This document shows, piece by piece, positions 1,506 through 34,313 of a stretch of DNA of 36,589 bases. The position numbers were made by a program, and so were the translations under genes. Under the pieces are notes generated by a model that saw nothing but the letters and a program-made list of their open reading frames with translations, was not told the DNA's origin and did not search any database. Origin of the DNA: a virus; IMG/VR virus record IMGVR_UViG_3300048576_000185, positions 1 through 36,589 of that record, one strand, 5' to 3'. Every line of letters begins with the position of its first letter. Position 1 is the first letter of the stretch.

Positions 1506-1521
1506 CAGTCCCTTCCCTTCC

Positions 1522-1568
1522 GTGAGCTTCCGTGAACTTCCCGGGAGGGTCTGTTCACGGAAGCTCAC
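1522..1568. repeat. Perfect 16-bp inverted repeat GTGAGCTTCCGTGAAC / GTTCACGGAAGCTCAC with a 15-nt spacer containing CCCGGG
   Basis: Arms at 1522-1537 and 1553-1568, read directly from the sequence. Confidence 0.95.
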
Positions 1569-1857
1569 CACCTGTTCACAGCCCTGAGTGGTTGCTTATA
1601 GCCTTCGAGTACAAAATTTCTCCTAATCCCTTATATATGTTCACAGAAGTACACAAGTGCACATAAAAGCGGGCTTTTCTATGAGTTAATTGATAAATAT
1701 TCACCATTAATTCATCCCACCCTTTCCATTCCCGTGAACTGTGAGCCTTGTGAACAGGATTGGGAACAGACTCTTTGTTTTGCAGCCTGTTAGTTTTTAG
1801 ATAGGCGACAAAACAAAATCCCAGTAGCAGGATAAGCTCACGCAGTTCACAGTTCAC
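1522..1857. repeat. Iteron array: 12 copies of G[T/C]TCAC in both orientations. Candidate replication origin or multi-operator region.
   Basis: GTTCAC or its complement at 1532, 1553, 1574, 1639, 1734, 1750, 1845 and 1852. GCTCAC or its complement at 1522, 1563, 1741 and 1836. An AT-rich core lies at 1681-1716. The array sits between the primase stop and the next gene's start. Confidence 0.7.
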
Positions 1858-4685
1858 GCTTCCTCCGGCAAACCTGGTTGCAGCGGTTTTTTGAAAGTCT
1901 TCTCTTCCTTTTTTACCGGATTAATCGGGCCAATCTCATCCAGGCTCAAGCCATACCGTTTTGCCAGAGCTGTCATGCGATCCTCTTCCCAGACAACGTA
2001 ATATCCATTCCGGGTCCGACCGCTGACCTGGAGCTGAAGGTCTTCCCTGATCAGATGCCCTATTTTCTGGGGTGATAACTCATCCTTTTTCTTCTTGCTC
2101 GATTTACTATCATCATCATCTGGATCCCGGAGATTCATTTGATCGATGATCTGGTTGGCGATCAGGGTGATGGATCCGACCGTCATTTGTTCCTGCCCGT
2201 CCGCCGACAAGGATATGAAATCATGGTGCAGATCGGGGAATTTGTGGATCTGCCAGATGGCCTCAATCACCCGGGCGTTGATGGTCATGCTCTTCAGCTG
2301 GACCATCTCGGCATAATATTCACGCAGGAACTGCCTCATTTCTTTCTGCAGCTCAGGGTCATCCTTGGCCACTGCCATCAAAGGTCCGGTGACCTGGTTC
2401 AAACGGCTGGAAATGTCAATATCATAGTAAGTGGGGTCCACCGGGATCTCGGATTGCCATTGTTCCAACCGCCAACGTAGCAGTAAATTGCGCAATGCCA
2501 GGGCCCGGGCTCGCATATCATTATTTACTTCCAGGGGGATCTTGTACTTAAGCAGTTCAAAGGTTTCCCGCGGCTGGATCTTGAATGTCAGAGACCGGCT
2601 GCCCACCGCGTCATCCCAAAAATCACGCCGCATGGCGATCAATTTCGGGCAGAAGGTCGTATACATCCGTTCCTGAAAATCCTTTTTCCCGTCGATGATC
2701 ACTTCCTCTAGGCGCCAGATGGGATTGTGCTTCATGGCTCCGAGGTTCAGGAATTTCACAATATCGTTTGATGCGTCCGATTTTTGCAGGTCGGCTTCAT
2801 CGATGAAAACCGTCCCCCTGTAACGTTCTACCGATCGGAAAAGGCTGGCAGCTGTACCAGCTCCATTGGCCACCATTAACCGATAACAGACCAACCCCAC
2901 CCGCCGCATCAGTTCACTCTTCCCGGCGCCCGCCTCTCCCATGGCCCTCAAATAGGGTATCGTGTTGAAACAGTCATATAACCAGGTGAGCAACGCATAG
3001 TACGCCATGATCTTGGCATCCAGATCCCGGTTGAGTAAATATGCCCGTTTGATGAACAACTCCACGATCGCAACGAGCTCACGGGTGCTTTTCAGTTCCC
3101 CCAGTTTCGATGGAAAGAGTACTCCCCCATTCCGGAAAGTATCGGTAGGAGGAAACGCCTCATAGACCGTCCCTTTGATTTCCACTGTCCGGCCTTCGCC
3201 AATTTCACCGCTGGGGTTTCTCCATGCCAGGCTGGAACTATCACCCTCTGGATCAAACATGTACTCAACCAGCCAGCCATCAATAACACCTCCCAGGGTG
3301 AAAGTGGTATTACTCGTTCTTTCTGATTTCGTATTTTCATTTAGACGGGTCTTTACAATTCTTCCAAATTCCCGCTGATTGATTTTCATCAAGCGCGAGA
3401 GATCTCCCTGGTAAGTTGCCCTCTCAAAATCTGGCATCAGGACGACAATATCGAAAGCATCTTTCAGCGCTTCATCCCTGGCGGCGCCCTCAGCCATGCC
3501 CGCCTTCTCGCAGATCTCCTCAACAAAAGTTCTGCTTTTGTCCATCAGGTTTATCAACGCTTTTACCTGTTGATCCTGGTCCAGCCCTTCCTTAATAAAT
3601 CGCTTAAGTAAATCATTGGCATCCTTTACCTCATCACCCGGCCATCTGACCATCCTGGTCATCGGCCCGAGTAGTTTGGCATTGATCCAGGTATTTTTCT
3701 GCCCGGCTGGGTCGCTGTCCATCCCCAGATAAATGGTCACTTCTCGATCGGCTTCTTTGGCACCAGGTTTTTTTCTGCCGGCAATGAACGAGACCAGCTC
3801 GGGGGATAAATGTGTCCCCGCCAGAGCCACCGCGGGGATTTCCCACTGTCCCAGGCTGATGGCGTCGGCCTGGCCTTCTACCAGTACAACCGATTCAGCA
3901 GCAGGAGACCAGGCCGAATTGAAAAACGGTTGTCTCTCTCCACCCAAAATTTCGGGGATGTTGTAGTGGCGTTTTTCTGGCCCGATGGACCGCAGGCTCA
4001 TGTACTTGACCTTCCCGGCTCGGTAATGCAAATAAACCAGAGACCGCTGCCCGAAAACTCCTGGTATCCGATCGTTATCGATCCAGGAGGAGTAGGAGGA
4101 CAGGTTCAGCCCCTGGGCGGTCGCCCATTTTTCTACACCTCCCTGCAGTCCCAGGATGGCGATGGCCGCTGGAGATTTGAGGTCCACACCTGCCAGGCTC
4201 AGCTCCCCTGAAAGTTGTTTTTTCTCCTCATCACTGCCCGACCCCGAATATCCCAGATGGTGCTGGCGTATAACAGCCTCGGTCCATCCCCTACCCTTGG
4301 CATATTCAAGCGCTTCCGGTTTTTCCGCCAGCCACGTGGACATCACCCGCCCCGCCACATCGAAGGCCTCCTCCCTCGCGCGGATGGTCAGCCTCACCTG
4401 GTTGTCCTGCTTCCCCCAGTCGGGCGCGGATATCCCCACCCGCCGGCAGAGATCCTCCACCGCGGACTTGAAGTCATACCCGCGCCTGGTCTGCACCCAG
4501 TTGATGACATCCCCGTGCTCACCCTGGCTGTTCCAGTGATATGCCTGGTTCGCAACATCCACCACCAGGCTGTCATGCTGATCACAGGGCCAGTATCGCC
4601 CGCGTTTGATCAGACGATATCCATCCTGTTCAATGACTTGCTCAATCCTCACCGTGCTCTTGATCTTTTCGACAATGTCATCCAT
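1854..4685 (-). CDS. DnaG-type primase (degenerate zinc-finger region plus TOPRIM) fused to a C-terminal P-loop NTPase; putative primase/helicase or replication initiator
   Basis: Start set at ATG 4685 (MDDIVEKIK, with GGGGAG 5 nt upstream). YWPCDQHDSLVVDVANQAYHWNSQGEHGDVINWV resembles the DnaG CHC2 finger with two Cys lost. TOPRIM motifs: VVLVEGQADAISL and IYLGMDSDPAGQK. Walker A: GEAGAGKS. Walker B: VFIDEAD. Confidence 0.85.
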   Translation of the reverse strand: MDDIVEKIKSTVRIEQVIEQDGYRLIKRGRYWPCDQHDSLVVDVANQAYHWNSQGEHGDVINWVQTRRGYDFKSAVEDLCRRVGISAPDWGKQDNQVRLTIRAREEAFDVAGRVMSTWLAEKPEALEYAKGRGWTEAVIRQHHLGYSGSGSDEEKKQLSGELSLAGVDLKSPAAIAILGLQGGVEKWATAQGLNLSSYSSWIDNDRIPGVFGQRSLVYLHYRAGKVKYMSLRSIGPEKRHYNIPEILGGERQPFFNSAWSPAAESVVLVEGQADAISLGQWEIPAVALAGTHLSPELVSFIAGRKKPGAKEADREVTIYLGMDSDPAGQKNTWINAKLLGPMTRMVRWPGDEVKDANDLLKRFIKEGLDQDQQVKALINLMDKSRTFVEEICEKAGMAEGAARDEALKDAFDIVVLMPDFERATYQGDLSRLMKINQREFGRIVKTRLNENTKSERTSNTTFTLGGVIDGWLVEYMFDPEGDSSSLAWRNPSGEIGEGRTVEIKGTVYEAFPPTDTFRNGGVLFPSKLGELKSTRELVAIVELFIKRAYLLNRDLDAKIMAYYALLTWLYDCFNTIPYLRAMGEAGAGKSELMRRVGLVCYRLMVANGAGTAASLFRSVERYRGTVFIDEADLQKSDASNDIVKFLNLGAMKHNPIWRLEEVIIDGKKDFQERMYTTFCPKLIAMRRDFWDDAVGSRSLTFKIQPRETFELLKYKIPLEVNNDMRARALALRNLLLRWRLEQWQSEIPVDPTYYDIDISSRLNQVTGPLMAVAKDDPELQKEMRQFLREYYAEMVQLKSMTINARVIEAIWQIHKFPDLHHDFISLSADGQEQMTVGSITLIANQIIDQMNLRDPDDDDSKSSKKKKDELSPQKIGHLIREDLQLQVSGRTRNGYYVVWEEDRMTALAKRYGLSLDEIGPINPVKKEEKTFKKPLQPGLPEEA

Positions 4686-5025
4686 GCAGACTCCCCACCC
4701 GTAAAAGATTATGTGACGTGATTTTCTTGCCTTACATGGCCCGAAACTGCCCCAAACCTGCCCAGTGGATAGCTTCCATGTCGCATAATAAAATATTATG
4801 TACATCGGCCATCACTCGCCCGCGCCCTGTTTTTCTGGCAACCCCGCGCCCGCCCGGGCAAATGCCCATCAAAACCCGTAAAAATGGAATTTCTCTACTA
4901 CTGAATTCAATGGCCTACGCGCGCCCATGGGACGGGTACCCGCCTCCTCTCCGCATGGCTGCGCCCGATGGGCTCTGGAGGGCGCCAGACCATCAGGTAC
5001 AGCCAGGTGGAGGGGAGAGCCGCCT

Positions 5026-5334
5026 CTACCAGCCATCCTGCTCCCTCAACTGGTGATACTCTCCCAGCCGGCGCTGTGCCACCTGGACATCCTGCCTGAT
5101 CTCACGCGTCAGTTCCAATGCCGGGCGCAGCAAAGGCTCCAGGCTGCCATCCCGCTGGATGGCCTGCCCGATCCTAAGATCCAACTCCTGCTGCCTGATG
5201 GGAACCATCCCCATACGAGACATGGCATCCTCAATCATCGCTCTGTGTTGTTCTGCATCCTTGTGTAATTTGGCCATAACATCCTCGTATAATCCGGGCA
5301 GGGCCTTCTCCCTGCCCGGGTAATCATCCGGCAT
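5026..5334 (-). CDS. Hypothetical helical early protein (102 aa)
   Basis: ORF in the minus-strand gene series. G/C-rich third positions. No recognisable motif. Confidence 0.5.
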   Translation of the reverse strand: MPDDYPGREKALPGLYEDVMAKLHKDAEQHRAMIEDAMSRMGMVPIRQQELDLRIGQAIQRDGSLEPLLRPALELTREIRQDVQVAQRRLGEYHQLREQDGW

Positions 5335-5344
5335 CCGCCGGCCG

Positions 5345-5563
5345 TTAGTATTTCCTGCACCGTCCGCCTGGCTGCCGGCGATTGATCACGGTCACACCCT
5401 CGGGCTTGATGAGGATCTGTCCGTGCTTCACCGCGACCGCCTGCAGTCTGGCTCCCTGCTGGAAGACATCTCCCACCTGTGGATCCAACCTTTTTGGCAA
5501 AGTCTCACGCTGTAGAATGGCTTCTGTTGGGGGATTCGCCCGAATTTCCGCATTTGTTCCCAT
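5345..5563 (-). CDS. Hypothetical early protein (72 aa)
   Basis: AGGAGGA SD 5 nt upstream of ATG 5563. Tightly packed against its neighbours. Confidence 0.55.
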   Translation of the reverse strand: MGTNAEIRANPPTEAILQRETLPKRLDPQVGDVFQQGARLQAVAVKHGQILIKPEGVTVINRRQPGGRCRKY

Positions 5564-5579
5564 CGTTTATCCTCCTGGA

Positions 5580-5798
5580 TCAATCTGCGAGGTCCTCATC
5601 GACCAGATCATCGAAGGGGATGTATCCATTCCGCCCAATCACGAGGATGACCGCCCTGCCGTTGGGGGCGATCCAGGCTTCGGACCGCGTCCACGAGGTC
5701 AGCGTCTCATCCCCTTCCTTGAACCGAATTTCCACCCCGATCGGATGCAACTTGTTCCATTGGATCAACCTGGCGATCAATTGCGAATCTGCCGGCAT
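5580..5798 (-). CDS. Hypothetical acidic early protein (72 aa)
   Basis: GGGAGG SD upstream of ATG 5798. Acidic C-terminus: FDDLVDEDLAD. Confidence 0.55.
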   Translation of the reverse strand: MPADSQLIARLIQWNKLHPIGVEIRFKEGDETLTSWTRSEAWIAPNGRAVILVIGRNGYIPFDDLVDEDLAD

Positions 5799-7322: not shown

Positions 7323-8438
7323 TTACAGCTCAATATCATCCACCACCGATTGCATCTCATCCATCGATGGCGTGCAATATCGCAGGGTGGTGGTTAATCG
7401 CTTATGCCGTGCCAGCTTGTTGGCGAACACCAGACCAAATTTTCTTTCCACCAGGTGGATGAAGGTGTGCCTTAATCGATGGGGAGTGACCGGCGCATCA
7501 AGCTGCGCCCGCCGGGATACTTCGGCCACCACACGCTGAACCGTTCTCCGGCTCAAATTCCCTTCATCATCACCGGGGAAGAGGTGTTGTTGAACCTCCT
7601 TCCCGGGGATGATTTCCACCCAGGCCTTGAGAGCTGCCCGCAGTTGGGGCGCGAGCGGCACATCCCCTGTCAGATGCCGCTTGCTGTCATATACCAGCAC
7701 CCTGCCGGATCTCGGGTTGAGGGTGATGTCGCCGATCTGCAGGTGGGTCACTTCGCTCTCCCTCAGGCCGGCTGTCAGCATCAACTGGCAGATCGCCCGG
7801 TCGCGGATGGCCTGCTGTCGCTGCAGGTCAGTCCGCGCCGTGTTGAGATCGGCCTCCAACTGGCGCACGAACAGCCGTCGGTCCTTTTCCAACAGCCAGC
7901 GCGGCGCCAGATCCACCTGGTCCATGCGGGTGAGGTCCCTGGCCGCGTCTTCCTGGATCAAGCCCAGACTGAGCGCCCATTGGGAAAGCTTGCGCAGAGC
8001 CACCATCCGCCGGTTCCAGGTGGCCGGGCGGATGTGCTGCTTTTCGCATTCACGCTGAAAGGAACGAAAATCCACCCGGTTGCAGTCGGATGGATGGAAG
8101 GGAGATCCATAAATTTCCCGATACCAGCGGGAATAAATACCCAGATCAAAGGCATAACTGTGGATGGAGTTATCCTCGAGGGTCTTGCCAGGCTTGACCA
8201 TCGAGCGCAGCCAGGCTGCGAAATCATTGATCCAACGTGGGGGGGAGGATGGATCATCCGCCCCCATTTCGGCGCTCATCTCGCATCCGGTTACAAGGCA
8301 CCGGGCTTGCGCCATTTTGTCGAATTCGGGATCCTGTGAAAAATCAGGATCATGGCTCACCTGGCAGGCGAATGTTTCAGTTTTTCCTTCCCTGCCTATG
8401 ATATATTTGCTGATCATAATCGGCTGCTGATCACTCAT
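7323..8438 (-). CDS. Tyrosine recombinase (phage integrase / Xer-like) with a ~70-aa N-terminal extension
   Basis: Start at ATG 8438 (MSDQQP, with GGAGGTG upstream). SAM-like core-binding region: WINDFAAWLRS...ATWNRRMVALRKL. Catalytic signature: AGLRESE ... HRLRHTF ... LARHKRLTTTLRY. Confidence 0.85.
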   Translation of the reverse strand: MSDQQPIMISKYIIGREGKTETFACQVSHDPDFSQDPEFDKMAQARCLVTGCEMSAEMGADDPSSPPRWINDFAAWLRSMVKPGKTLEDNSIHSYAFDLGIYSRWYREIYGSPFHPSDCNRVDFRSFQRECEKQHIRPATWNRRMVALRKLSQWALSLGLIQEDAARDLTRMDQVDLAPRWLLEKDRRLFVRQLEADLNTARTDLQRQQAIRDRAICQLMLTAGLRESEVTHLQIGDITLNPRSGRVLVYDSKRHLTGDVPLAPQLRAALKAWVEIIPGKEVQQHLFPGDDEGNLSRRTVQRVVAEVSRRAQLDAPVTPHRLRHTFIHLVERKFGLVFANKLARHKRLTTTLRYCTPSMDEMQSVVDDIEL

Positions 8439-8781
8439 GGGCCACCTCCGCTCGCTCTGGTCCGGTCTGGATGAAGGTTCCCGCGATCGGCAGCGATTTG
8501 GCGAAGGTGAGCATGGCATCTTCCCCCGGCTTGAGCCAGATATACAATTTCAGGGTGGGGATATCTGTCGCCGTCCTGGCTCTGCCCGCTCCGAAGCGCC
8601 GGTTGGCATTGTTCATGATGTTGCGCTGGTCCTTTTTCAGCTCGCCGAAGTCATCATATTGCACCACAATGGCCTTGCCCGGGATGAGCTGCTCGGCCAG
8701 TTGTTTGCAAAAACTGTCCCCATATTGCTTCAAATTGGTGGGGATTTCGGAATAACCGAGTACGGTACGCTTTCTGTCCAT
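8431..8781 (-). CDS. Hypothetical early protein (116 aa)
   Basis: GGAGGG SD upstream of ATG 8781. Its 3' end overlaps the tyrosine recombinase start by 8 nt. Confidence 0.55.
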   Translation of the reverse strand: MDRKRTVLGYSEIPTNLKQYGDSFCKQLAEQLIPGKAIVVQYDDFGELKKDQRNIMNNANRRFGAGRARTATDIPTLKLYIWLKPGEDAMLTFAKSLPIAGTFIQTGPERAEVAHE

Positions 8782-8834
8782 TCTGCCCTCCAGAAGGAAA
8801 TAAAAAATTATTCAGCCACTCTAGAAAGAGTGTG

Positions 8835-9032
8835 CTATTCTGAAATTGCTGTTTGATTTGGTTGTGGTGAGGTATGAGGTTCGGAAGAAAATCTATGGTC
8901 CTCATTCCATTGGGTGATGATTTGCCTAACGGAAGCTGATCTAGAAATTCGATACTTCTCTTCATATGCTTTCAGGATTGAAAGCTCACTCAAAGAAAGG
9001 GAAATTGAAATTTTTTCTATAGTCTCTTTCAT
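8835..9032 (-). CDS. Ribbon-helix-helix (CopG/Arc-like) DNA-binding protein. First gene of the early operon; Cro-like by position.
   Basis: KISISLSLSELSILKAYEEKYRISRSASVRQIITQW fits the beta-strand/helix/helix RHH pattern (sRSxxIRxAI). ATG 9032 has GGAG 7 nt upstream. The track start at 9038 is a GTG. Confidence 0.6.
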   Translation of the reverse strand: MKETIEKISISLSLSELSILKAYEEKYRISRSASVRQIITQWNEDHRFSSEPHTSPQPNQTAISE

Positions 9033-9058
9033 GACCACTCTCCGCTAGCGTAATTTTT

Positions 9059-9074
9059 TACTCGCATACGAGTA
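9059..9074. promoter_or_regulatory. Operator-like inverted repeat TACTCG-cata-CGAGTA, overlapping the -10/+1 of the early promoter. A degenerate second copy, TACTCcgcGAGGA, lies at 9078-9090.
   Basis: Read directly. The position between two divergent regulator genes supports the call. Confidence 0.5.
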
Positions 9075-9101
9075 TTATACTCCGCGAGGAAATAGTGTCA
9101 A
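9074..9101 (-). promoter_or_regulatory. Early (lytic) sigma70-type promoter: TTGACA, 16 nt, TATAAT
   Basis: On the minus strand the -35 TTGACA is at 9101-9096 and the -10 TATAAT is at 9079-9074. Both hexamers are perfect consensus, and the promoter lies about 40 nt upstream of the RHH ATG. Confidence 0.75.
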
Positions 9102-9141
9102 GTGGTAGCATAAAGTATCAAATGTTAGCTAGAATAGGAAT

Positions 9142-9558
9142 ATGGAAGATAAACGCGAAAAAGTCATGTTATGGTTTAACGAAAAATTTCTTTGGTATCA
9201 GAGCCAACAACCAAAGAAAAGGGCAACAATTGAGGAATTCGCCAATTTTATAGAAATCCCAGACGCTTCTCTGGGTCATTATATGAATGGTCGGAGAATT
9301 CCTTCCTTTGAAGTGTGTATGAAAATAGCGAAAAAATTAGGTGATTATTCGCTTTTACCTATTTCTGGGTTTGATTTGCCAGGGGAAGTCATAACATTTG
9401 ATTCACTTCCCCCTGAAACACAGTCCATGTTTATGCAAGCAATTGGAGAAATCAATTCTTTACTCAAATCAAAAAATGTGAGTAATGAGGACGAAGCCTT
9501 CAAAATAGCCTCTGAAGTATTTGCATCGCATTCATTGCGCGCCGCAAAAGTAAAATGA
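9142..9558 (+). CDS. XRE/cI-type helix-turn-helix repressor (138 aa). No S24 autocleavage domain is evident.
   Basis: ATIEEFANFIEIPDASLGHYMNGRRIPSFEVCMKIAKKLG matches the XRE HTH pattern. It is divergent from the RHH gene. Confidence 0.75.
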   Translation: MEDKREKVMLWFNEKFLWYQSQQPKKRATIEEFANFIEIPDASLGHYMNGRRIPSFEVCMKIAKKLGDYSLLPISGFDLPGEVITFDSLPPETQSMFMQAIGEINSLLKSKNVSNEDEAFKIASEVFASHSLRAAKVK

Positions 9559-9638
9559 TTTGAAGTCTTTGTAACCACAATGATCATATGTAACCCTCCA
9601 TTTATAAAAAAAGTATAGCACGGATGTTCTATTAGTCA

Positions 9639-9656
9639 ACTGTAACTACTTACAGT
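9639..9656. repeat. Inverted repeat ACTGTAA-ctac-TTACAGT in the intergenic region upstream of the membrane-protein/recombinase genes
   Basis: Read directly. It is flanked by direct AGTCAA repeats at 9634-9639 and 9655-9660. Its function is unknown; it could be an operator or an attP arm. Confidence 0.4.
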
Positions 9657-9680
9657 CAATCATTGAATAGGGGTGAAGAA

Positions 9681-10181
9681 ATGAAAAAAATCACACAAAT
9701 CGTTGTTATCATTCTAATTGCTCTTATGGTCTTTGGTTCTGGCTTTCTCATGAGAGACGTGATCCAACCACAAAATAGTTTCATCATCAAAATTGCTTCC
9801 GGAAGCACGCCTACCCCTGAAGGATGCAACCCCCAGGAAGTGGCGGTTTATTTCTCAATTCTTAATCAGTTTATGAATAATTTCAACGACCTGGATACTA
9901 TCGCCAGATCCACCAGCCGTATCAACCTGACTACTCCCATCATGAAAATGCAGGAAGTAAAACAGCAATTCCAACAAGCCTCCGGCCCCAAATGCACTGC
10001 CACAGCCACTGATTACTTCCTGACCTATATGGAAAAAGATATTAATGCCTACCTGGCGTTCTCGACAGAAGCTCCCGATGCCGAGGTTACCAAACAATTG
10101 AAAGACGCCAGGGATTTCCACGATCTGACAATTTCAGAGATTTCCAACGTTCAGCGGTGTATGCCTAATTGTAAGAATTGA
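9681..10181 (+). CDS. Signal-anchored extracytoplasmic Cys-containing protein (166 aa). Candidate lysogeny-expressed superinfection-exclusion protein.
   Basis: ATG 9681 has AGGGGTGAAGAA upstream; the track start at 9663 is a TTG. N-terminal TM segment: ITQIVVIILIALMVFGSGFLM. Four Cys residues lie in the soluble part. The gene sits between the repressor and the integrase. Confidence 0.65.
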   Translation: MKKITQIVVIILIALMVFGSGFLMRDVIQPQNSFIIKIASGSTPTPEGCNPQEVAVYFSILNQFMNNFNDLDTIARSTSRINLTTPIMKMQEVKQQFQQASGPKCTATATDYFLTYMEKDINAYLAFSTEAPDAEVTKQLKDARDFHDLTISEISNVQRCMPNCKN

Positions 10182-10187
10182 TTGATT

Positions 10188-11822
10188 ATGCAATCTCGCA
10201 ATCCATTCCCCCCTGGTTCTCTGGTCGCCGCCTACCTCCGCGATAGCGGCGGCGGCGGCCAGGATCTTTCTGTATCCCAGCAACAGGCCGAGCTCACCCG
10301 CTTCGCCGCTGAAAACGGCCTGATCATCTCGCGCGTGTTTGTCGATATCGCCAAAACCGGTACCACCACCGTTGGCCGTGAAAGTTTCGATGAAATGATC
10401 ACTTATTTTCAACAGAACGGCCCACAGCGCCTCGAAATTGGCATCATTTTGTGGTCATTCTCCCGCTTTGCCCGCGAAATGGATGACAGCTCCTACTACA
10501 AAGCCATGCTCCGCATCCAGGGCTACGAGATCCACTCCCTCTCCGATCCCATCCCATCCGGACTTGAAAAACCCGATCAGCGCCTGCTCGAAGCCGTCTA
10601 CGATTACAACCACGCCCGTTTCATCCTCACCCTCCAGAAGGATGTGAAGCGCGGCTTATATTCCATCTTCAGGGAATACGGTGCCCTGGGCGGGCTGCCG
10701 CCCCGCGGCTTCAAGCGCGAAATCATCACCCTCCCCAATCACCGCTCGGGCGAAAAACACACCATCGCCCGCTGGGTCCCCGACCCGGATCTGTGGGAGA
10801 CCTGCCGCCTGGCCTGGCAGATGCGTGCCGCCGGCTATTCCTACCGCGAGATCCACGAACGTACCCACCTCTATAGCTCCCAGGGCTCCTACGCCACCTT
10901 TTTCAGCAATCGCATTTACCTGGGAGAAATGACTTTTGGGGATGAGATCGTGCCCGATTACGCCCCCGCCCTGGTGGATCTCGACACCTGGAACAAGGTC
11001 CAGGAATACAACCATCGCAATAAGATGATCAGCTCCCCCAAAATCGGCAACCCCGATCACTCCTCCCGCACCAACTCCCCCTACCTGCTCTCAGGGTTGG
11101 CCTTTTGCCCGTGTGGCGCCCATCTCAACAGCCACAAAATCAAATTCTCTCGCGGGTACGTCCGCACCTATTACCGCTGTGCCAGCTACAAAAAAAGCGA
11201 GGTTGAACACACCCGCCAGATCCCGGCTGAAGAACTCGAGGAGAAAATCGAAGAATTCATCCTCGAGAAGATCCTCTCCCCCTACAACCTGATCCAGATC
11301 ACCTCCGCCTACTATGATGATTACGCCAGCCATAAGTCAAAACTGGTCCAGGAACGCGGCCAGATCCGCCGGGTGCTCAGCCGGAATAAAACCTCCATCA
11401 CCCACCTCATCCACACCATCAAACTGACCGGACCCAACGCCGCCCTTGGCCGCGAGGTTGCCGGGCTGGAAGAGGAAAACACACGCCTCGAGGAACAGGC
11501 CCGCATCCTCGATGCTGCCCTCAACTCCCAACCGCCCAAACCCAACCGCGAGGAGCTGAACAACATCTCAACCTACCTGCGCCAGGCGATTAAAACAAAA
11601 GAAACGGCCGAAAAGCGCCGTTTCCTGCGAGGAATCATCACTAAAATCATTGTCAACCGTACCGAAAATCAGGTTGAAATCACAATCTACTATATAAATC
11701 CAATCTCAATATTTAGAGCTGAGCAGTGTGCCCCTGCGGGGGTTCATTGGCCAACTCTAAATTTCACATTCACCTACAAAAATGATCGGAAAAAATACAC
11801 TTACAAACAAAAAAGTCCCTGA
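10188..11822 (+). CDS. int: Large serine recombinase (phage integrase type)
   Basis: Resolvase-type N-terminus: AAYLRDSGGGGQDLSVSQQQAEL. Recombinase domain. Zinc ribbon: CPCGAHL...YYRC. Long coiled-coil segment (LEEENTRLEEQARILDAAL). The ATG lies 6 nt after the stop of the upstream gene. Confidence 0.9.
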   Translation: MQSRNPFPPGSLVAAYLRDSGGGGQDLSVSQQQAELTRFAAENGLIISRVFVDIAKTGTTTVGRESFDEMITYFQQNGPQRLEIGIILWSFSRFAREMDDSSYYKAMLRIQGYEIHSLSDPIPSGLEKPDQRLLEAVYDYNHARFILTLQKDVKRGLYSIFREYGALGGLPPRGFKREIITLPNHRSGEKHTIARWVPDPDLWETCRLAWQMRAAGYSYREIHERTHLYSSQGSYATFFSNRIYLGEMTFGDEIVPDYAPALVDLDTWNKVQEYNHRNKMISSPKIGNPDHSSRTNSPYLLSGLAFCPCGAHLNSHKIKFSRGYVRTYYRCASYKKSEVEHTRQIPAEELEEKIEEFILEKILSPYNLIQITSAYYDDYASHKSKLVQERGQIRRVLSRNKTSITHLIHTIKLTGPNAALGREVAGLEEENTRLEEQARILDAALNSQPPKPNREELNNISTYLRQAIKTKETAEKRRFLRGIITKIIVNRTENQVEITIYYINPISIFRAEQCAPAGVHWPTLNFTFTYKNDRKKYTYKQKSP

Positions 11823-11840
11823 TCTCTCAGGGGCTTTTTA
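11811..11840. terminator. Bidirectional intrinsic terminator between the convergent recombinase and endolysin genes
   Basis: AAAA-GTCCCTGA-TCTC-TCAGGGGC-TTTTTA. The 8-bp stem has one G-U pair on the plus strand and one mismatch on the minus strand. An A-tract lies on one side and a T-tract on the other. Confidence 0.75.
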
Positions 11841-11907
11841 TCGTAAGCGGTTTTATCGGTTCCCATCTTTTATGTTATGTCTGCGCAATCAAATCCATCA
11901 CCTCCCT

Positions 11908-12864
11908 TCAATCCACATTCCAGCCAGCGGCGACCGCCAGCGTTTTCAGCCGTTCAATCTGACCGGGTTGATCCAGCTCTTCCCAGTGTTTATGTACCCC
12001 TGCAGTTGGATCAGTCTCTGCCGGCTGCGGATCCGCTGCCCGGGTGGATCCAGACTCTCCCCAGGGCGGCATCTCCGCCAGGGTCGCCCAGGCGAAGGGA
12101 ATATGCTGGGTATCAAGGGCATGCTGCATGGACCACCAGCTCACACCCACCATCCCCAGCTCACGTGCGCGTTGCTCAAATGCGATCATCGCCGCCCTCG
12201 AGGGCACACCGCCATCACCGATATATGCCCGCCCGATCGGCACGATCGGGATATCTGTGACTTTACGCCACTGTTCGATGGACGAATTGAGATTCGAGAT
12301 CGCACTGGCCACATCATCCACCACGTGTTCTGTGCCCCAATAGACCATCGGCATGCCAAAATCCGCGGCGCCATAACCTTTGGATGTCGCAGCCCATAGG
12401 ATGGATTTGGGATGCCAGGTACCGCCCGTGGATGATTGGTAGCATGCCCACCAGCACCACCCCGCCAGGCAGCCTGCCGGCGCCGCGCCGTGGAAAGCTT
12501 TCACCAGGGCAGATGCGAACGAATCGGGAGATTTGGCATTATCCACCGCCACTTCTGCATCAAACACCCACCCGGTCAACGAGAATTTCTTGCAGAACCC
12601 GGCCACCCTGGCGCCCTCTGCTGAAGGTGTCAATCCATAGACGGCGCATCCCCCAAACACGTGGATCCCCACCGTCTGCAGGGCTTTGACCAGGTTGATT
12701 CGTTGAGTTTCTTCCCAGTTCGTGGACCGGGTCGAGTGCAGGACCGCAGATTGGAATTTCCCCGCCTGCAGAGCGGCCACAATTTTCCCGATATCCCCGC
12801 CGTAGATCTCGGGGATGCTCCAGATATAAATATTTTTTCCGATGGTTTGTTTTAAGTCGCTCAT
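11908..12864 (-). CDS. Putative endolysin, TIM-barrel glycosidase-like (possibly GH25-like muramidase)
   Basis: Start at ATG 12864 (MSDLKQ, with AGGAGGA upstream) rather than track position 12930. It is the last gene of the late operon, after the fibre gene. Alternating beta/alpha pattern with GWVFDAE and VGIHVFGG. The family assignment was made by eye only. Confidence 0.5.
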   Translation of the reverse strand: MSDLKQTIGKNIYIWSIPEIYGGDIGKIVAALQAGKFQSAVLHSTRSTNWEETQRINLVKALQTVGIHVFGGCAVYGLTPSAEGARVAGFCKKFSLTGWVFDAEVAVDNAKSPDSFASALVKAFHGAAPAGCLAGWCWWACYQSSTGGTWHPKSILWAATSKGYGAADFGMPMVYWGTEHVVDDVASAISNLNSSIEQWRKVTDIPIVPIGRAYIGDGGVPSRAAMIAFEQRARELGMVGVSWWSMQHALDTQHIPFAWATLAEMPPWGESGSTRAADPQPAETDPTAGVHKHWEELDQPGQIERLKTLAVAAGWNVD

Positions 12865-12902
12865 GTTTAATCCTCCTATTTCGAATGGACAGATTTGTGA
12901 GA

Positions 12903-14354
12903 TTACAATTCGCTTTCGACCATGATCCAATCGGTTGTAGTATTCCCCACTCCGATATCCCTGAAGGTCGATGCGGTTGATGCCGCGGCGGTACCATAAA
13001 GTTTCAATATGCTTCCAGAGGTGTGTTCCGAAAGGGTTCCCAGTAGTATGGCAACCTGCGCAAGACCGCCCCCAAGATAAAAATTCGCGGCCGCCGAACA
13101 GCTAAAGGTGGCGGTGGCGTAATTCCTCATAGGTGTCGGTAGGCTAAGATACCCATAAAAATTAGTACCGGTTGCCTGAACATAAGCCCAGGTCAGAGAG
13201 GCGTACGCGACAGCTAGAATATCTTTCCAACAATATCGCTGACATAACTCCAACTCTTGACCTGTTGGCTTTGGTAACCACGCCTGAACAGTGGACGCGA
13301 TATATAATCCAGCCTCTGAAATAAGCACATAATCACTTGCGTGCGCCGGAACATCCTCTGTCCAGATCAAGATGATCAGGTTGTTGCATGATTGCGATAC
13401 CGTTCCAGTAACACTCAATTGCGTGATTGTGTTATGGGCAGCAGATATCTGAGCAGTCCCAATGAGGGTTAGGGATGTTGTATTAAAGAAGTTCCCGGTT
13501 GTGTAGGTACCTGACGTCCAGTCGTTGATGATATCGCTGGTGACCGCGTCGGCGGTCCCTGTCCATTCCAGGATGGCAATCCGCATGTCAATTGTTCCAG
13601 AGCCGGCATTTTTCACCGGTTTCACCAGGCATTGAGCGATGATTGATTTACCCCTTGCCTGGATGCTGTTTGCACTCTCAACAATCTGTTCAATGCCGTG
13701 CCGGTAGCTCGTACCGCCGGCGGTCAACTTACACGAATAGGGCGAGTTGGTCAGACCGGTTGAGCGCTGAATAGTTGGGTTGGATCCCTGGATAAGAGAA
13801 TTCCATCGGTCAGGGGCGTTGTAAATATCATCGGTCATGGTCACCGCGCTTCCAGTTCCACCGCGCTGCCATATATCGAACCCGCCATTTATCAATATGT
13901 TCGCTGATGTTGGATTTGTCCCACCACCCCCACCCGAAACCATCGCCCACGCGGATCCGGATGGAACAAAGATTTTGGTTTCCCCCTGCGCAACCGTGCC
14001 TATCGTTGTTGCCGCTGCATTTTTGACCGTAATCGTTTCGGCGGCATCCGCCGTATTGATGATCACGAATACATGGTTGGATGTGGCATTCGCCGGCAAT
14101 GTGACATCCCTCGCGGATCCATTCGGGTCCAGCCATTGCAGCGGACTATCCCCATCCACCAGGGAGAGATTGGCAGCCATGGAATAGGTGCGGCTGAAAT
14201 AGGCCACAAGCTCTGTTCTGGCCAGCAGGGTCTCCATGGCCGTGATCTCTTCATAAGCTCTGCTGAATAGTACTGCCGCGCAAGTATCCCCCGCCAGACC
14301 ATCCACCAACGCAGGTAAAAAGGTTTGTATCCCACCCGGAAAAACCGCCGTCAT
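12903..14354 (-). CDS. Tail fibre / receptor-binding protein
   Basis: Its position is distal in the tail module. Gly/Thr/Ala-rich shaft ending in SGGGGGTNPTSANILINGGFDIWQRGG, a motif common at the start of fibre-tip domains. Confidence 0.7.
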   Translation of the reverse strand: MTAVFPGGIQTFLPALVDGLAGDTCAAVLFSRAYEEITAMETLLARTELVAYFSRTYSMAANLSLVDGDSPLQWLDPNGSARDVTLPANATSNHVFVIINTADAAETITVKNAAATTIGTVAQGETKIFVPSGSAWAMVSGGGGGTNPTSANILINGGFDIWQRGGTGSAVTMTDDIYNAPDRWNSLIQGSNPTIQRSTGLTNSPYSCKLTAGGTSYRHGIEQIVESANSIQARGKSIIAQCLVKPVKNAGSGTIDMRIAILEWTGTADAVTSDIINDWTSGTYTTGNFFNTTSLTLIGTAQISAAHNTITQLSVTGTVSQSCNNLIILIWTEDVPAHASDYVLISEAGLYIASTVQAWLPKPTGQELELCQRYCWKDILAVAYASLTWAYVQATGTNFYGYLSLPTPMRNYATATFSCSAAANFYLGGGLAQVAILLGTLSEHTSGSILKLYGTAAASTASTFRDIGVGNTTTDWIMVESEL

Positions 14355-20868: not shown

Positions 20869-21334
20869 TGATCGTTACTCCTTCTTTTTCATTTACCCAG
20901 AGATCTATGACAGGTCCCCAGTATTGGTCATCCGGTCCGCCCCACTGGATCGGCCCTATCTTCCAACTGAACAGCTCGCCGCTCTCCTGGTCGCCGATGA
21001 TCTGGCAGGATCCATTGAGTGTCAGATGCGCGTACAGGGTGATGGCCACCGCTCGCGGCCACGGCTCCACCAGGGCGTACCGCTCGCTCATCTCCTTGGC
21101 CATCCCGCACAGCATGATGTAGATCCGCACCTTGTAGCGGTGGGTCATCTCCACATCGGCGCTCTGCACGATCGTATTTTCGGCGTTCGCCGCCAGCACG
21201 CATTTGATCAACGGGAAATCCGCTTCCGCGGCGGAGGGGCTGGGGCCGTCCACCCGGGCGGGCGACGGCTGTGGAGCCGGGTTCACGCCCGCCAGGATGG
21301 CCTCCAGTTGTGCCAGTACGTTGGTGATGCTCAT
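20861..21334 (-). CDS. Neck / tail-completion protein (called on position only)
   Basis: Lies between the connector and major tail genes. ATGA coupling. Confidence 0.4.
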   Translation of the reverse strand: MSITNVLAQLEAILAGVNPAPQPSPARVDGPSPSAAEADFPLIKCVLAANAENTIVQSADVEMTHRYKVRIYIMLCGMAKEMSERYALVEPWPRAVAITLYAHLTLNGSCQIIGDQESGELFSWKIGPIQWGGPDDQYWGPVIDLWVNEKEGVTINA

Positions 21335-22155
21335 ACCATCCCCCTGGCCATCAGCCCCAGCTCAGTCAGCGTCTTGCGCAGATATACCGTCACATCTTTG
21401 GGAGTGGAGAAAGTGACCCCGTCCACGGTGATGGTTTCCGCGGTCGGGTTGCTCTGCAGTTTGTACAGAGCCAGTGCCCCTCTTTTGGCCAGGCCTTCGA
21501 TGTCCGCGCCCGGGTTCCAGCGATAGATCCTGGCGCCGCTCAAATGGCTCGCCGCCATGGATCCATTCACCCCCCTGATCAGGGTCAACTGATCAGGAGT
21601 GCCGCTCACAACCGCCGAAGCGTACATCCATTCGTCATCGATCTTCAGCAGCTCACCCGCCTTCACCTTGCCGGCCGTGCAGGTCGCGCTGGTATCGCTG
21701 GCATTGATCCCGGCTGCCAGGCTGGCGAGGGTATCTTCCACCGTCTCCGGCCAGATCCGGCTGTAACCCCAGATCCCCGCCACGCTGATCGCCGCGTCGC
21801 TGTAGCTGGTCACGCTCGGGTACCACGAGTACATCCCACCCACCAGGCGGATGGAGTGCTTGGGATACCGGTTGAGCGGATACAACCGGTAGTACGCGCT
21901 GGGGATGACCGTGCCATCCCCGTTGGTTAAGGTGGTCACCTCGAGCAGATCGGCATCCACTACCAGTTCGGTTTCATCGTCGGGCACATCAAAGGTCAGT
22001 GTCCGAACCCGTGGGTGGAATTCCCGCCGGCTGAGAGTTTCAATCTGCGCGCTCACATCCTTGATCATCTTCAGGATGAAAGCGTCATCCGAGGTGCTCT
22101 TGATGTCGCTGTATTCGCGCAGGGCTGAGACGGTGGTGTAATCGCAGATCTTCAT
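21331..22155 (-). CDS. Head-tail connector (gp6-like N-terminal region) with a long C-terminal extension
   Basis: Start at ATG 22155 (MKICDYTTVSALREYSDIKSTSDDAFILKMIKDVSAQIETLSRREF) rather than track position 22347. The N-terminus fits the pattern typical of head-tail adaptors. Confidence 0.5.
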   Translation of the reverse strand: MKICDYTTVSALREYSDIKSTSDDAFILKMIKDVSAQIETLSRREFHPRVRTLTFDVPDDETELVVDADLLEVTTLTNGDGTVIPSAYYRLYPLNRYPKHSIRLVGGMYSWYPSVTSYSDAAISVAGIWGYSRIWPETVEDTLASLAAGINASDTSATCTAGKVKAGELLKIDDEWMYASAVVSGTPDQLTLIRGVNGSMAASHLSGARIYRWNPGADIEGLAKRGALALYKLQSNPTAETITVDGVTFSTPKDVTVYLRKTLTELGLMARGMV

Positions 22156-22160
22156 GGTGG

Positions 22161-22520
22161 TTAGCTCTTCATCACTACCGCGAAAGCGCGATCGGCGCTC
22201 TGGGAAACAGCGGAGCCGGAGGCTTCGGTCCAGATCTTGAACCGTTCGGCTCCCGCCAGCTCGGTGGGCAGCGGATAGGCGTGGCTGGCGCCCAGGTCCA
22301 CCGTGATCTCCACCAGCGTATTGCTCGCATTCCGCAGATCCCCCCATGTGGTGCCGCCATCCGGAGAAACCTTGAACGCGATTTTGGTGGTCGCTTCCAG
22401 TGCGGCGGGGGTGATCAGTTGTCCCTTCTCAAACCCGGCAAAGATGATCGGATCGCTTTCGCTCTGTCCGCTGAGGATTTTGTGAGGTTGCTGCTGACTG
22501 TATCGTGTGTATGTTCCCAT
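22161..22520 (-). CDS. Hypothetical head-module protein (119 aa)
   Basis: GGAGGAGGAAATCG upstream of ATG 22520. Confidence 0.45.
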   Translation of the reverse strand: MGTYTRYSQQQPHKILSGQSESDPIIFAGFEKGQLITPAALEATTKIAFKVSPDGGTTWGDLRNASNTLVEITVDLGASHAYPLPTELAGAERFKIWTEASGSAVSQSADRAFAVVMKS

Positions 22521-22532
22521 CGATTTCCTCCT

Positions 22533-22555
22533 CCCCTCCCCGAACTGGGGAGGGG
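22533..22555 (-). other. GC-rich stem-loop (CCCCTCCCC / GGGGAGGGG, 5-nt loop) abutting the SD of the downstream gene
   Basis: Read directly. No U-tract follows, so this is not a canonical terminator. Confidence 0.6.
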
Positions 22556-22566
22556 GATGAATTTTC

Positions 22567-32497: not shown

Positions 32498-33448
32498 TCA
32501 TATCCTCACTCCCTTCCTTCTCCGTTTGGACCGCTCTATCCCCTTCACCGGCTCCTCACCCCTCAATTTTTTTAGCCTCTGATAGTGCATGAAAATCGCA
32601 TATCCTGTGACCGGGCTCTTCATCAGCCGGCCGATGTCCGCCCAGCCCTTATGCCATACATCCCTGGCCAGCAACAGGAACTCATTGGCGCCCTCTGTCC
32701 AGTTTTCGGTGGTTTCAGTGACTCCTTGTTTGGGATACTTGATCTGTTCTGCCACACTTCTCCGGATGTACCAGTAGGACCATTTGGGGTTGCGTTGTCT
32801 TTCCTTTCCTACCGCCTGAATAGCGGGGATATGATGATTTTGGATATAACTGACCACATTTCGTACCTCACATCCCCACATCTTTGATACTGTCACGGTA
32901 TCCAGCCACTCATCCCCCCATCGTTCCTGGGCCAGGGTCACCAGCCGGCGAAAATAGGGGTTGATCATCCGCTCTGTTTTAAAGTAAACCCAGTGTTCTG
33001 GCTGGATCAACCACCGCTTAAAATCTTCTACTTTTACCCATCTCTTCATGACCCTGGTATCGCTATATGGCATGTAACTGTATAGCATGATCCCCAGATC
33101 CATCCAGCAGGTGACCGAATGGCTGTCCCGACCGAGGATCTTCCCGATTTTGTTGCCCGATAAATACCCTTCGGCATGACGTGGGGATGTAATGCCATGT
33201 CTGACCACATACATATGGATCGAATTTTGAGATCTTCCCATCATTTCGGCGCATTTTTCAGTCCCCAGGTATTGATAATTCTCCCTGACGAATTTTTTCT
33301 CCTCATCAGTCCAAGATACTCGCCGGGGCTTCTGTTCCTCTTGCACGATCACCGGCCGGACGACATTTATCCCATTTACTCGCTTCCAGTCAGCGGGTTG
33401 GGTGTTGGCATCACTAATGGCAAGATCAATCAAAAAATCAATATCCAT
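32498..33448 (-). CDS. DNA-binding regulator with two Myb/SANT-like HTH repeats (316 aa); candidate late-gene regulator
   Basis: SWTDEEKKFVRENYQYLGTEKCAEMMGRSQNSIHMYVVRHGI and NWTEGANEFLLLARDVWHKGWADIGRLMKSPVTGYAIFMHYQRLKK. Basic C-terminal tail: RSKRRRKGVRI. Confidence 0.5.
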   Translation of the reverse strand: MDIDFLIDLAISDANTQPADWKRVNGINVVRPVIVQEEQKPRRVSWTDEEKKFVRENYQYLGTEKCAEMMGRSQNSIHMYVVRHGITSPRHAEGYLSGNKIGKILGRDSHSVTCWMDLGIMLYSYMPYSDTRVMKRWVKVEDFKRWLIQPEHWVYFKTERMINPYFRRLVTLAQERWGDEWLDTVTVSKMWGCEVRNVVSYIQNHHIPAIQAVGKERQRNPKWSYWYIRRSVAEQIKYPKQGVTETTENWTEGANEFLLLARDVWHKGWADIGRLMKSPVTGYAIFMHYQRLKKLRGEEPVKGIERSKRRRKGVRI

Positions 33449-34313
33449 CGTGAGTATCTCCCTTACCGATCATCTGGATGACTAAATCCACAACCGGGCA
33501 ATCCTTGCATGTAGTCACGGTTGCGTTATCTACCAGGCTGCATTTTTTACAGGTATCTCTCACCGAGATCTCGAACAACACCCAGGGAGGAAGTTTCCCG
33601 ACCGCCGCGAACGCATCCCATGCCGGCCGGCTCACTTTCCCGGCTCTTCGCGTGGCAATCTCAAAAGCAGGCACAGTATTTGAGCCTATTGGCTTTGCCT
33701 TGCTCCCCTCAATCACCCGGCGGATGGCATCCACGCTCTGGGGGATGGTCATCTTGCTGTTGGCCAATCGGATGGCCATCTTTTCTCGAGTGGCCGATAC
33801 CGGGATATCCATCAGGGCATCCACCAGGCGCGGATCGGGGGAGATCCGTTTCGCCAGAATCAATTTTTGGATGGATGTCTCCAGCTTCAGCAGCTTCAGA
33901 TTTCGGTTTACCCGGGCGTAATTGGTCCCCATCTTGAGAGCGATTTGGTTCTCGCTCAGTCCAAACTCATTTTTGAGGCGCTGGTAGGCATGCGCCTCAT
34001 CGATGGGGTTCAGATCTGCCCGTTGGATGTTGGCCACCATCGCCCTCATCAGCCGTTCTTCTTTCCCGATGCCGCCTGTTGGGTCCACCGGATCCACTGG
34101 CACCTCCTTCAGTCCTGCCAGTTTGGATGCTCTCAGCCTCCTCTCGCCATCATGGATGATGTAATTTCCCTTGCCGGCAACTTCCGCGATGATAGGCTGG
34201 ATGACCCCGTGCTGTTTGATGCTGTCCGCCAGTTCCTGCAGTTCGGCCTGGTCAAATGTTTTTCTTGGCTGCTCAGGGTTGGGCAGCAATCTTTCAACGC
34301 TGACTAATATCAT
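33438..34313 (-). CDS. ParB/Spo0J-like protein (ParB N-terminal domain plus HTH) with a Cys-rich C-terminus
   Basis: LLPNPEQPRKTFDQAELQELADSIKQHGVIQPII...HDGERRLRASKLAGL. HTH: SENQIALKMGTNYARVNRNLKLL. C-terminus: CKKCSLVDNATVTTCKDCPV. Confidence 0.8.
   Translation of the reverse strand: MILVSVERLLPNPEQPRKTFDQAELQELADSIKQHGVIQPIIAEVAGKGNYIIHDGERRLRASKLAGLKEVPVDPVDPTGGIGKEERLMRAMVANIQRADLNPIDEAHAYQRLKNEFGLSENQIALKMGTNYARVNRNLKLLKLETSIQKLILAKRISPDPRLVDALMDIPVSATREKMAIRLANSKMTIPQSVDAIRRVIEGSKAKPIGSNTVPAFEIATRRAGKVSRPAWDAFAAVGKLPPWVLFEISVRDTCKKCSLVDNATVTTCKDCPVVDLVIQMIGKGDTHDGY

Follow-up and report, generated by a model that had tools for sequence, protein, structure and literature searches.

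In the TnpI/IRS system of transposon Tn4430, accessory recombinase-binding repeats beside the core force resolution between direct repeats, and tyrosine recombinase systems that consist of a core only yield intra- as well as intermolecular products (PMC2847244). A protein with the fold of a tyrosine recombinase may also have left recombination behind. MrpR (YopR) of Bacillus phage SPbeta keeps three of the seven catalytic residues, carries out no recombination and is the lysogeny repressor of that phage (PMC10516654). Here we have analyzed the complete IMG/VR virus record IMGVR_UViG_3300048576_000185, a stretch of 36,589 bases that we refer to as the window and that encodes both a large serine recombinase and a tyrosine recombinase. 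A sequence-only reading of this DNA had drawn attention to the pair, had remarked that a phage of this size normally needs only one integrase, and had offered four roles for the tyrosine recombinase: a Xer-like resolvase of multimers, a contribution to the direction of excision, a second integration specificity and an inversion switch. Both genes were found where that reading had placed them, with domains and active-site residues intact. The one integrase that suffices is, by the prophage junctions of a relative, the serine recombinase, and the tyrosine recombinase is accompanied by a conserved element of about 100 bp that precedes the primase gene. We put the chances at about even that the two recombinases have separate jobs, with the Xer-type enzyme resolving genome multimers at this element.

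The tyrosine recombinase has the two-domain architecture of the PF00589 superfamily, with a core-binding and a catalytic domain, and no arm-binding N-terminal domain was found in it by Pfam or NCBIfam scans. All seven catalytic residues are present (R226, E229, K253, H320, R323, H345 and Y354). In an alignment of 60 relatives that share 17-76% identity the only invariant columns are R226, K253, H320, R323 and Y354, while E229 and H345 are conserved to at least 90%. The catalytic set is also kept in nine more distant relatives, some of them borne on genomes, one of which has a Q in place of H345. That all seven residues persist down to 17% identity argues for selection on catalysis, and the enzyme looks active.

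Among the NCBIfam models XerC and XerD rank first, but they score far below the equivalog cut-offs (TIGR02224, 126.6 vs 335 bits; TIGR02225, 115.7 vs 329.6 bits). A profile search of the PDB with the 60 relatives gave archaeal XerA (1e-56), XerD (4e-56) and XerH (3e-33), and much more weakly the Brujita integrase (1e-28), lambda Int and Cre (both about 1e-13). An AlphaFold2 model with a mean pLDDT (predicted local distance difference test) of 85.5 has high confidence for residues 65-371, and in Foldseek its top matches were XerA, XerH and the integron integrase IntI4, with Cre and the lambda Int core also retrieved. Its sequence and fold place the enzyme among the Xer-type simple recombinases, though not as an orthologue of XerC or XerD. 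The extra N-terminal segment of some 70 residues described by the earlier reading was recovered as an extension of about 65 residues in an open frame, common only to the closest relatives P0002, P0003 and L002. Residues 1-61 have a pLDDT below 50 in the model and are predicted to form a lineage-specific disordered tail.

The proposed crossover site for this enzyme is a dif-like core some 100 nt ahead of the primase start (Table 1). One full match to this core exists in the window, where 0.03 would be expected by chance, and comparable cores with spacers of 6 or 7 bp were found in more than 40 relatives, as befits a gene-linked site of a single-recombinase Xer system. Of the 40 loci with an early recombinase, 30 have a core xxxxxATAA-N6/7-TTATxxxxx at a distance of 52-340 bp upstream of the primase gene, compared with one of the eight loci without the enzyme (Fisher p = 0.0017); elsewhere in these loci such cores occur at a background rate of 0.010 per 800 bp. 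When the surroundings of the recombinase gene were scanned for dyads of arm, spacer and arm, the scan returned a perfect TTCGCATAA-N6-TTATGCGAA in L013, in L048/G007:C18 and in a metagenome-assembled genome (MAG) of Desulforudis, that is, in three independent loci, compared with about 2.5e-5 expected by our own calculation for the 1.69 Mb searched. Weaker core variants are concentrated 120-380 bp upstream of the recombinase gene in loci from Bacillota, where the cores as a whole lie 100-380 bp upstream of it. The arms vary by clade and include GTCGCATAA, TTCGCATAA, TGCGGATAA, TGCGTATAA, GCRACATAA and TTCCGATAA.

A third copy of the arm motif, the accessory half-site, completes the element. In relatives it points in the direction of the left arm, its start is offset from that of the core by 85-87 bp, and it matches the core arm of its own locus within two mismatches in 36 of 54 loci (identical in 29), with nine sequence variants represented. 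Across 19 distinct core/accessory triples we counted 6 mismatches, while shuffled pairings gave a mean of 31.8 and a minimum of 18 (permutation p <= 1e-4). The half-site thus co-varies with the core, and a core with an extra motif copy at a fixed position is the arrangement of TnpI/IRS-type sites. In many of the phages the half-site is found about 25-100 bp before the primase start. Seven genome loci from Bacillota that lack this primase carry the same element directly upstream of the recombinase gene. There the core is followed, after about 50 bp, by a short block similar to TAAG, then by a T run and finally by the accessory copy, which immediately precedes the ribosome-binding site. As the element precedes the recombinase gene in loci without the primase, it belongs to the recombinase rather than to the primase.

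Related arrangements were observed elsewhere. In the Chloroflexota genome loci L144 (4604-5781) and L146 (9561-10601) a palindromic core lies 100-150 bp upstream of a recombinase of the same family, with no match to any other protein of the window nearby; one of the two is near a smpB-like gene, recognised by eye only. A distant clade of the primase family, represented by L222 and L223, has two tyrosine recombinases with intact active sites and five dispersed dyads GACTGATAA-N7-TTATCAGTC (at 2052, 6286, 9468, 15985 and 20445 in L222), a multi-site layout unlike the single element described here. We also considered that the enzyme might be a protelomerase (telomere resolvase). This identity did not fit, as the spacers lack two-fold symmetry and in many cases have a length of 7 nt (for example tatttta, caacgca, catgggg).

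For the comparison across phages, viral and genome contigs of relatives were retrieved with an alignment of tyrosine recombinase relatives (A1), since single-protein scans of viral contigs with either recombinase as query gave no matches and alignments were needed; the closest relatives P0002 (82% identity) and P0004 were left out of the contig comparisons. An early tyrosine recombinase is present in 40 of the 48 informative contigs, defined as contigs with the primase family and at least 6.5 kb of upstream sequence. It lies on the same strand as the large primase gene, 1.2-6.4 kb upstream of it, at a protein identity of 20-57%. Loci with this early recombinase differ in what occupies the lysogeny slot, a serine recombinase in at least 15 and a tyrosine integrase on the opposite strand in at least nine; in G001 and G002, which have the latter, no resolvase domain is found anywhere in the record. 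The early recombinase stays while the integrase is swapped, and this implies a function of its own and argues against a dedicated role as directionality factor. The paired arrangement as such is found again in dozens of phage contigs, at a protein identity of only about 30%, so that the pairing is not a chance mosaic. An identity as a phage tyrosine integrase of the lambda type was rejected for want of an arm-binding domain and with gene and core both away from the prophage boundary. Judged by its position and its co-occurrence with other integrases, the tyrosine recombinase is not the integrase.

That place is taken by the serine recombinase. It comprises the Resolvase, Recombinase and Zn_ribbon_recom domains and matches phrog_95, annotated as integrase, at 4e-55; the Y-x-R-D-S motif with the catalytic serine and the cysteines of the zinc ribbon are invariant in 14 relatives. 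The domain with the catalytic serine, the recombinase domain and the zinc ribbon are those of a large serine integrase, and so is an attP in the form of an imperfect dyad of about 50 bp, for which attL and attR were recovered in a relative. This relative, G006:C11, is a 50.5-kb contig of an Anaerolinea MAG; its synteny with the window begins at the serine recombinase and takes in the primase, terminase, portal and tail genes. From about 37.85 kb onwards the contig contains cellular genes, for aldo/keto reductase, histidine phosphatase, MgsA, PPK2 and a DsbA-like protein, and the change from phage synteny to ordinary cellular genes identifies it as an integrated prophage. The contig starts with a tRNA-Glu(CUC) gene, recognised by ARAGORN, fused to the 3' end of the serine recombinase gene, which constitutes attL. 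At the other end, attR, host DNA is followed by the segment that encodes the C-terminal tail of the recombinase and by a terminator hairpin equivalent to the one behind the integrase gene of the window.

Both junctions have the common core GTGCCCCCAGGG, and the attP rebuilt from them aligns colinearly with positions 11660-11845 of the window. The two have in common the outer inverted arms TTTAG...CTAAA, the centre GTGCCCC and a reading frame for a similar C-terminal tail, which ends in FTFTYKNDRKKYTYKQKSP in the window and in FTFNIIRKKYTRLIK in the relative. The search for prophage junctions that the sequence-only reading had proposed was therefore informative: the att junctions of this prophage belong to the serine recombinase, which is hence the integrase. 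As far as these junctions and the domain content indicate, the enzyme recombines its own 52-bp attP with a host site, namely, in the close relative, with the 3' end of the tRNA-Glu(CUC) gene. In the prophage the tyrosine recombinase gene is 4.6 kb and the dif-like core 7 kb inside, the latter intact. For the window phage itself, an attB guessed as a tRNA 3' end that terminates in CCGCAGGGGCA had no match in 121 Anaerolineae genomes.

The attP lies within the last ~110 nt of the serine integrase gene and in its reading frame, and palindromes occur at the matching position of this gene in L169 and L220. As attP is inside the frame, integration exchanges the last ~28 codons. Note that the conserved tail of the integrase (FTF...RKKYT) is swapped for an antisense reading of the tRNA gene (window 11711-11822; L135:1-140; L136:17740-17920), and that the terminator of the integrase gene is displaced by about 37.8 kb upon integration. 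Such a tail exchange could let the integrase sense the integrated state. We found no published description of an attP inside a serine integrase gene in a limited literature search, and a serine integrase with a changing tail offers a simple natural system for studying how the integrated state is sensed.

With integration assigned to the serine recombinase, we favour multimer resolution as the task of the tyrosine recombinase. Expressed from the early lytic promoter, the enzyme would bind the three copies of the 9-bp motif in the ~100-bp element before the primase gene, where the two inverted copies around the 7-bp spacer would form the crossover core and the third, direct copy would be set off by 87 bp. 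With one element per genome, a reaction is possible only between sister, tandem or terminally repeated copies of the genome. The accessory copy makes the element similar to res or IRS sites, at which intramolecular resolution is favoured, and suggests a topologically selective synapse, with resolution of multimers to monomers as the most likely outcome. Multimers from replication or recombination would in this way be turned into monomer circles, as by Cre/loxP in P1 and TnpI/IRS in Tn4430. What the sequences show directly is which domains the enzymes have, that their active sites are intact, where the att junctions of a relative lie and that the element is conserved and co-varies; binding, crossover at the core, selectivity for resolution and the benefit to the phage are inferred. 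In addition the enzyme probably occupies the promoter region of the downstream gene. Of the four roles proposed at the outset, the Xer-like multimer resolvase is the best supported, with XerA and XerD as the closest relatives of the enzyme and a single core plus accessory site. The earlier reading had tied this role to a circular replicative or plasmid-like form that would fit the orphan ParB-like gene; the relative is integrated, not episomal.

Several points weigh against this reading. The statistic for the co-occurrence of core and recombinase treats the loci as independent, with no correction for phylogeny, and ten of the 40 relatives with the recombinase show no core under the search rule used. 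The core of the window is asymmetric, its left arm TGTACATAA and the reverse complement of its right arm, GTCGCATAA, differing at four of nine positions. No recombination product was seen, and the three close sequence pairs available did not suffice for locating breakpoints of crossover at the core. Monomers are not obviously required by phages that package their DNA from concatemers. Finally, the element might serve as an operator and not as a site of crossover.

The same chemistry at the same site might bring a different payoff, either cyclisation of terminally redundant incoming DNA, as with Cre, or fusion of circles into multimers that can be packaged. A single site per genome would suit this, as would production of the enzyme from the first promoter used after infection; PHROG scans of the submitted open reading frames (ORFs) of the window returned no annotation as general recombinase, and both intra- and intermolecular products are known from core-only systems (PMC2847244). 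We nonetheless consider it unlikely. The phased accessory half-site suggests selectivity for resolution and not for fusion, and with about 10.8 or 25.7 kb, depending on direction, between the site and the terminase genes, few headfuls would carry the site redundantly. Rather improbable, too, is a tyrosine recombinase that acts mainly as a DNA-binding regulator, with the half-sites as operators of the primase gene, or of its own gene in Bacillota, and with recombination as a secondary activity. The position of the accessory half-site, immediately before the downstream ribosome-binding site in Bacillota and shortly before the primase start in many phages, speaks for such a regulator, and SPbeta, likewise a phage with a serine integrase, uses the recombinase-fold protein MrpR as its master repressor (PMC10516654). 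However, MrpR has lost most of its catalytic residues, while all seven are kept here across relatives down to 17% identity, and a simple sigma-70 scan of the coding strand placed no promoter over the accessory half-site. A broader version of the favoured reading, in which the ~100-bp element, with its core and a helically phased accessory half-site over the start region of the downstream gene, is a portable cassette for recombination and promoter control that monomerises genomes, throttles the primase and, in Bacillota, autoregulates the recombinase, is tentative and in our estimate has a minor chance of being correct.

The remaining roles fare worse. A second route of integration, in which the dif-like core recombines with a similar host site in the way of dif-integrating elements that bring their own Xer-like enzyme, could draw on the existence of arm-less tyrosine integrases, the Brujita integrase being among the PDB sequence matches, and on the module of recombinase and site in genome loci of Bacillota and Chloroflexota without other genes of the window phage. 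It is nevertheless very unlikely, as the core is intact and internal in the prophage G006:C11, whose junctions are the att sites of the serine integrase, and as the gene sits in a lytic operon. A dif-like pattern was, moreover, no more common than its reversed control in 61 Anaerolineae genomes, and with these equal counts we dropped the idea that the phage core imitates the dif site of the host. The suggestion that the tyrosine recombinase doubles as a helper in excision or as directionality factor of the serine integrase gains something from its early expression and from the fact that no recognisable directionality factor was found, and serine integrases often draw their directionality factors from among proteins that have another function (PMC11795197). 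Here the retention of the early recombinase in relatives that integrate by a tyrosine integrase, and its own conserved DNA target, leave little room for this role. Least credible of all is the inversion switch, to be entertained only because a perfect 18-bp inverted repeat flanks positions 21262-22582. The sequence of that repeat has no relation to the core, and the syntenic region of G006:C11 lacks it; with only one full core in the genome, inversion at the core site was rejected.

The features to which these arguments refer are collected in Table 1.

Table 1. Features of the window that bear on the two recombinases and their sites.
Feature	Coordinates	Strand	Evidence or remark
Repeat-rich non-coding stretch after the primase gene, candidate replication origin	1506..1857		GTGAAC/GTTCAC repeats; perfect 16-bp inverted repeat
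Primase/helicase-type replication gene	1854..4685	-	PHROG DNA primase families; longest ORF to 4805
Accessory half-site GTCACATAA	4709..4717	-	Direct orientation with the core left arm; start 87 bp away
Dif-like core TGTACATAA-tatttta-TTATGCGAC, proposed crossover site	4780..4804	-	No second full copy in the genome
Xer-type simple tyrosine recombinase, 371 aa	7323..8438	-	PF00589 Phage_integrase, 1.4e-23; PF02899 SAM-like N-terminal
116-aa ORF, translationally coupled to the tyrosine recombinase	8431..8781	-	Homologue in L002 only, among fetched loci
First early gene, small ribbon-helix-helix (RHH)/Cro-like candidate	8835..9038	-	Sole match weak: phrog_876 transcriptional repressor, 9.7e-4
Consensus early promoter TTGACA-16-TATAAT	9101-9074	-	12/12 matches in sigma-70 scan
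HTH_3 repressor-like gene heading the lysogeny cassette	9142..9558	+	Pfam HTH_3, 6e-07; PHROG transcriptional regulators
Large serine recombinase, phage integrase by sequence and junction evidence	10188..11822	+	Alternative start: TTG at 10182
attP of the serine integrase, 52-bp imperfect palindrome	11711..11762		24-nt arms, 4-nt centre
Hairpin flanked by runs of A and T, located between the 3' ends of the integrase gene and of the convergent late gene 11908..12930	11810..11839		Palindrome scan; probably a bidirectional terminator
ParB-like gene without ParA partner	33438..34313	-	TIGR00180 parB_part, 124 bits, above cut-off; PHROG ParB-like families

The window ends in a 127-bp exact repeat of its beginning, which indicates a circular assembly, and represents the whole 36.5-kb genome of a temperate phage. 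Nearly all genes, among them those for primase, terminase, portal, tail and the ParB-like protein, are on the minus strand; the plus strand is used in 9142-11822 only, where the repressor gene and an ORF of 172 residues precede the serine recombinase, as the earlier description of a lysogeny cassette with this enzyme behind the repressor had it. No tRNA gene was found within the window. The best genome matches to the alignment A1 are MAGs of Anaerolinea and Anaerolineaceae, which points to a host in the Chloroflexota; the host is probably a member of the Anaerolineae, an assignment that rests on MAG contigs.

The consensus early promoter drives three genes, of which the RHH-like one comes first, followed by the 116-aa ORF and then by the tyrosine recombinase. 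The description of the latter as the third early gene, coupled to the preceding ORF, was borne out: 7 nt before the ATG at 8438 there is a GGAGG, and the start overlaps the stop of that ORF by 8 nt. The proposed Cro-like RHH gene is where it was said to be, and small RHH-like ORFs occur at the equivalent position in relatives, but an identity as RHH protein is only weakly indicated by the single match in Table 1. For the 116-aa ORF there was no match in Pfam, PHROG or NCBIfam, and a protein atlas search gave nothing above 0.85. The longest version of the primase ORF begins at 4805, within the core site, so that the real start is probably the ATG at 4685, and in a second alignment (A2) the primases of relatives begin at a position that resembles MDDIVEKIK. 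The ~40 codons from 4805 to 4685 are probably non-coding.

A GC-rich hairpin with 15-nt arms and a 6-nt loop at 5289-5324 was also considered as a site for the recombinase. It is kept in L002 through a change compatible with G-U pairing, and this change together with a T run in L002 makes an RNA hairpin or terminator likelier, so that the candidate was dropped. The hairpin is probably a terminator or attenuator within the early operon and implies a real start of the ORF 5026..5334 at the ATG at 5277. In L002, the closest viral relative, an extra ORF of 265 residues directly follows the tyrosine recombinase gene (4884-5681); it resembles the N-terminal part of the primase, with 31% identity over 131 residues. 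Five of 80 viral contigs (L160, L187, L194, L215 and L224) start 0-151 bp upstream of the primase match, where by our own calculation about 0.35 would be expected by chance. Contig ends near the element were dropped as candidates for physical ends, as the starts lie downstream of the core, between element and gene, in G-rich sequence and probably reflect an effect of assembly or sequencing. The perfect 18-bp inverted repeat mentioned above (21244-21261/22583-22600) encloses the gene 21331..22347; by our own estimate about 0.01 such pairs are expected.

Should the two recombinases be divided as proposed, this would explain why an integrating phage keeps both of them: one integrates, and the other is a conserved enzyme of the replication module with a site of its own. 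The annotation of a second integrase, a problem with many metagenomic phages, would be replaced by a testable model with defined DNA substrates. If the cassette reading is true, replication initiation is coupled to genome topology in a large family of uncultivated, integrating phages of Chloroflexota, and the cassette family supplies dozens of natural, mutually distinct pairs of recombinase and site. Co-varying pairs of enzyme and site, with at least nine arm variants, are candidates for orthogonal tools of the Cre/lox kind. A limited literature search returned no description of a Xer-type module with core and phased accessory site in the early replication operon of integrating phages.

Among known systems the serine integrase has the domain set of the integrases of A118, phiC31, Bxb1 and SPbeta (SprA) and an imperfect palindrome of about 50 bp as attP, but unlike in those phages attP is inside the integrase frame, and in the relative a tRNA 3' end is targeted. 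SPbeta also provides the precedent of a recombinase-fold protein, MrpR, beside a large serine integrase (PMC10516654). The phage enzyme differs from it in that all seven catalytic residues are kept and in that it is encoded in a lytic operon and coexists with a conventional helix-turn-helix repressor; the degenerate active site that would mark an MrpR-like repressor was not seen.

For the tyrosine recombinase the closest relatives in sequence and fold are the enzymes of the XerA/dif, XerH/difH and XerS/difSL systems and XerD, which have the same arm-less two-domain architecture. With the single-recombinase Xer systems the locus has in common one enzyme and a near-palindromic core with inner arms CATAA/TTATG and a spacer of 6-7 bp, and, in the Bacillota loci, gene and site are adjacent as in XerS/difSL. 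Unlike these systems and XerD, the module is located in the early operon of a phage and not at a chromosome terminus, it includes a third half-site at a fixed offset of 87 bp, many of its spacers are 7 bp long, and control by FtsK finds no support here. In Cre/loxP of P1, too, a phage encodes a simple tyrosine recombinase and has a single short site in its genome, and the system serves cyclisation and dimer resolution instead of chromosomal integration. P1, however, is a plasmid prophage and loxP has no accessory site, while the phage family described here integrates by a separate integrase, and the similarity to Cre is remote (E ~1e-13 vs 1e-56 for Xer). In the layout of its site the locus comes close to TnpI/IRS, with a core of inverted motifs, direct copies nearby and a length of about 100 bp compared with 116 bp for the IRS, although one accessory copy is seen here in place of two (DR1 and DR2) and the context of the IRS is a transposon cointegrate.

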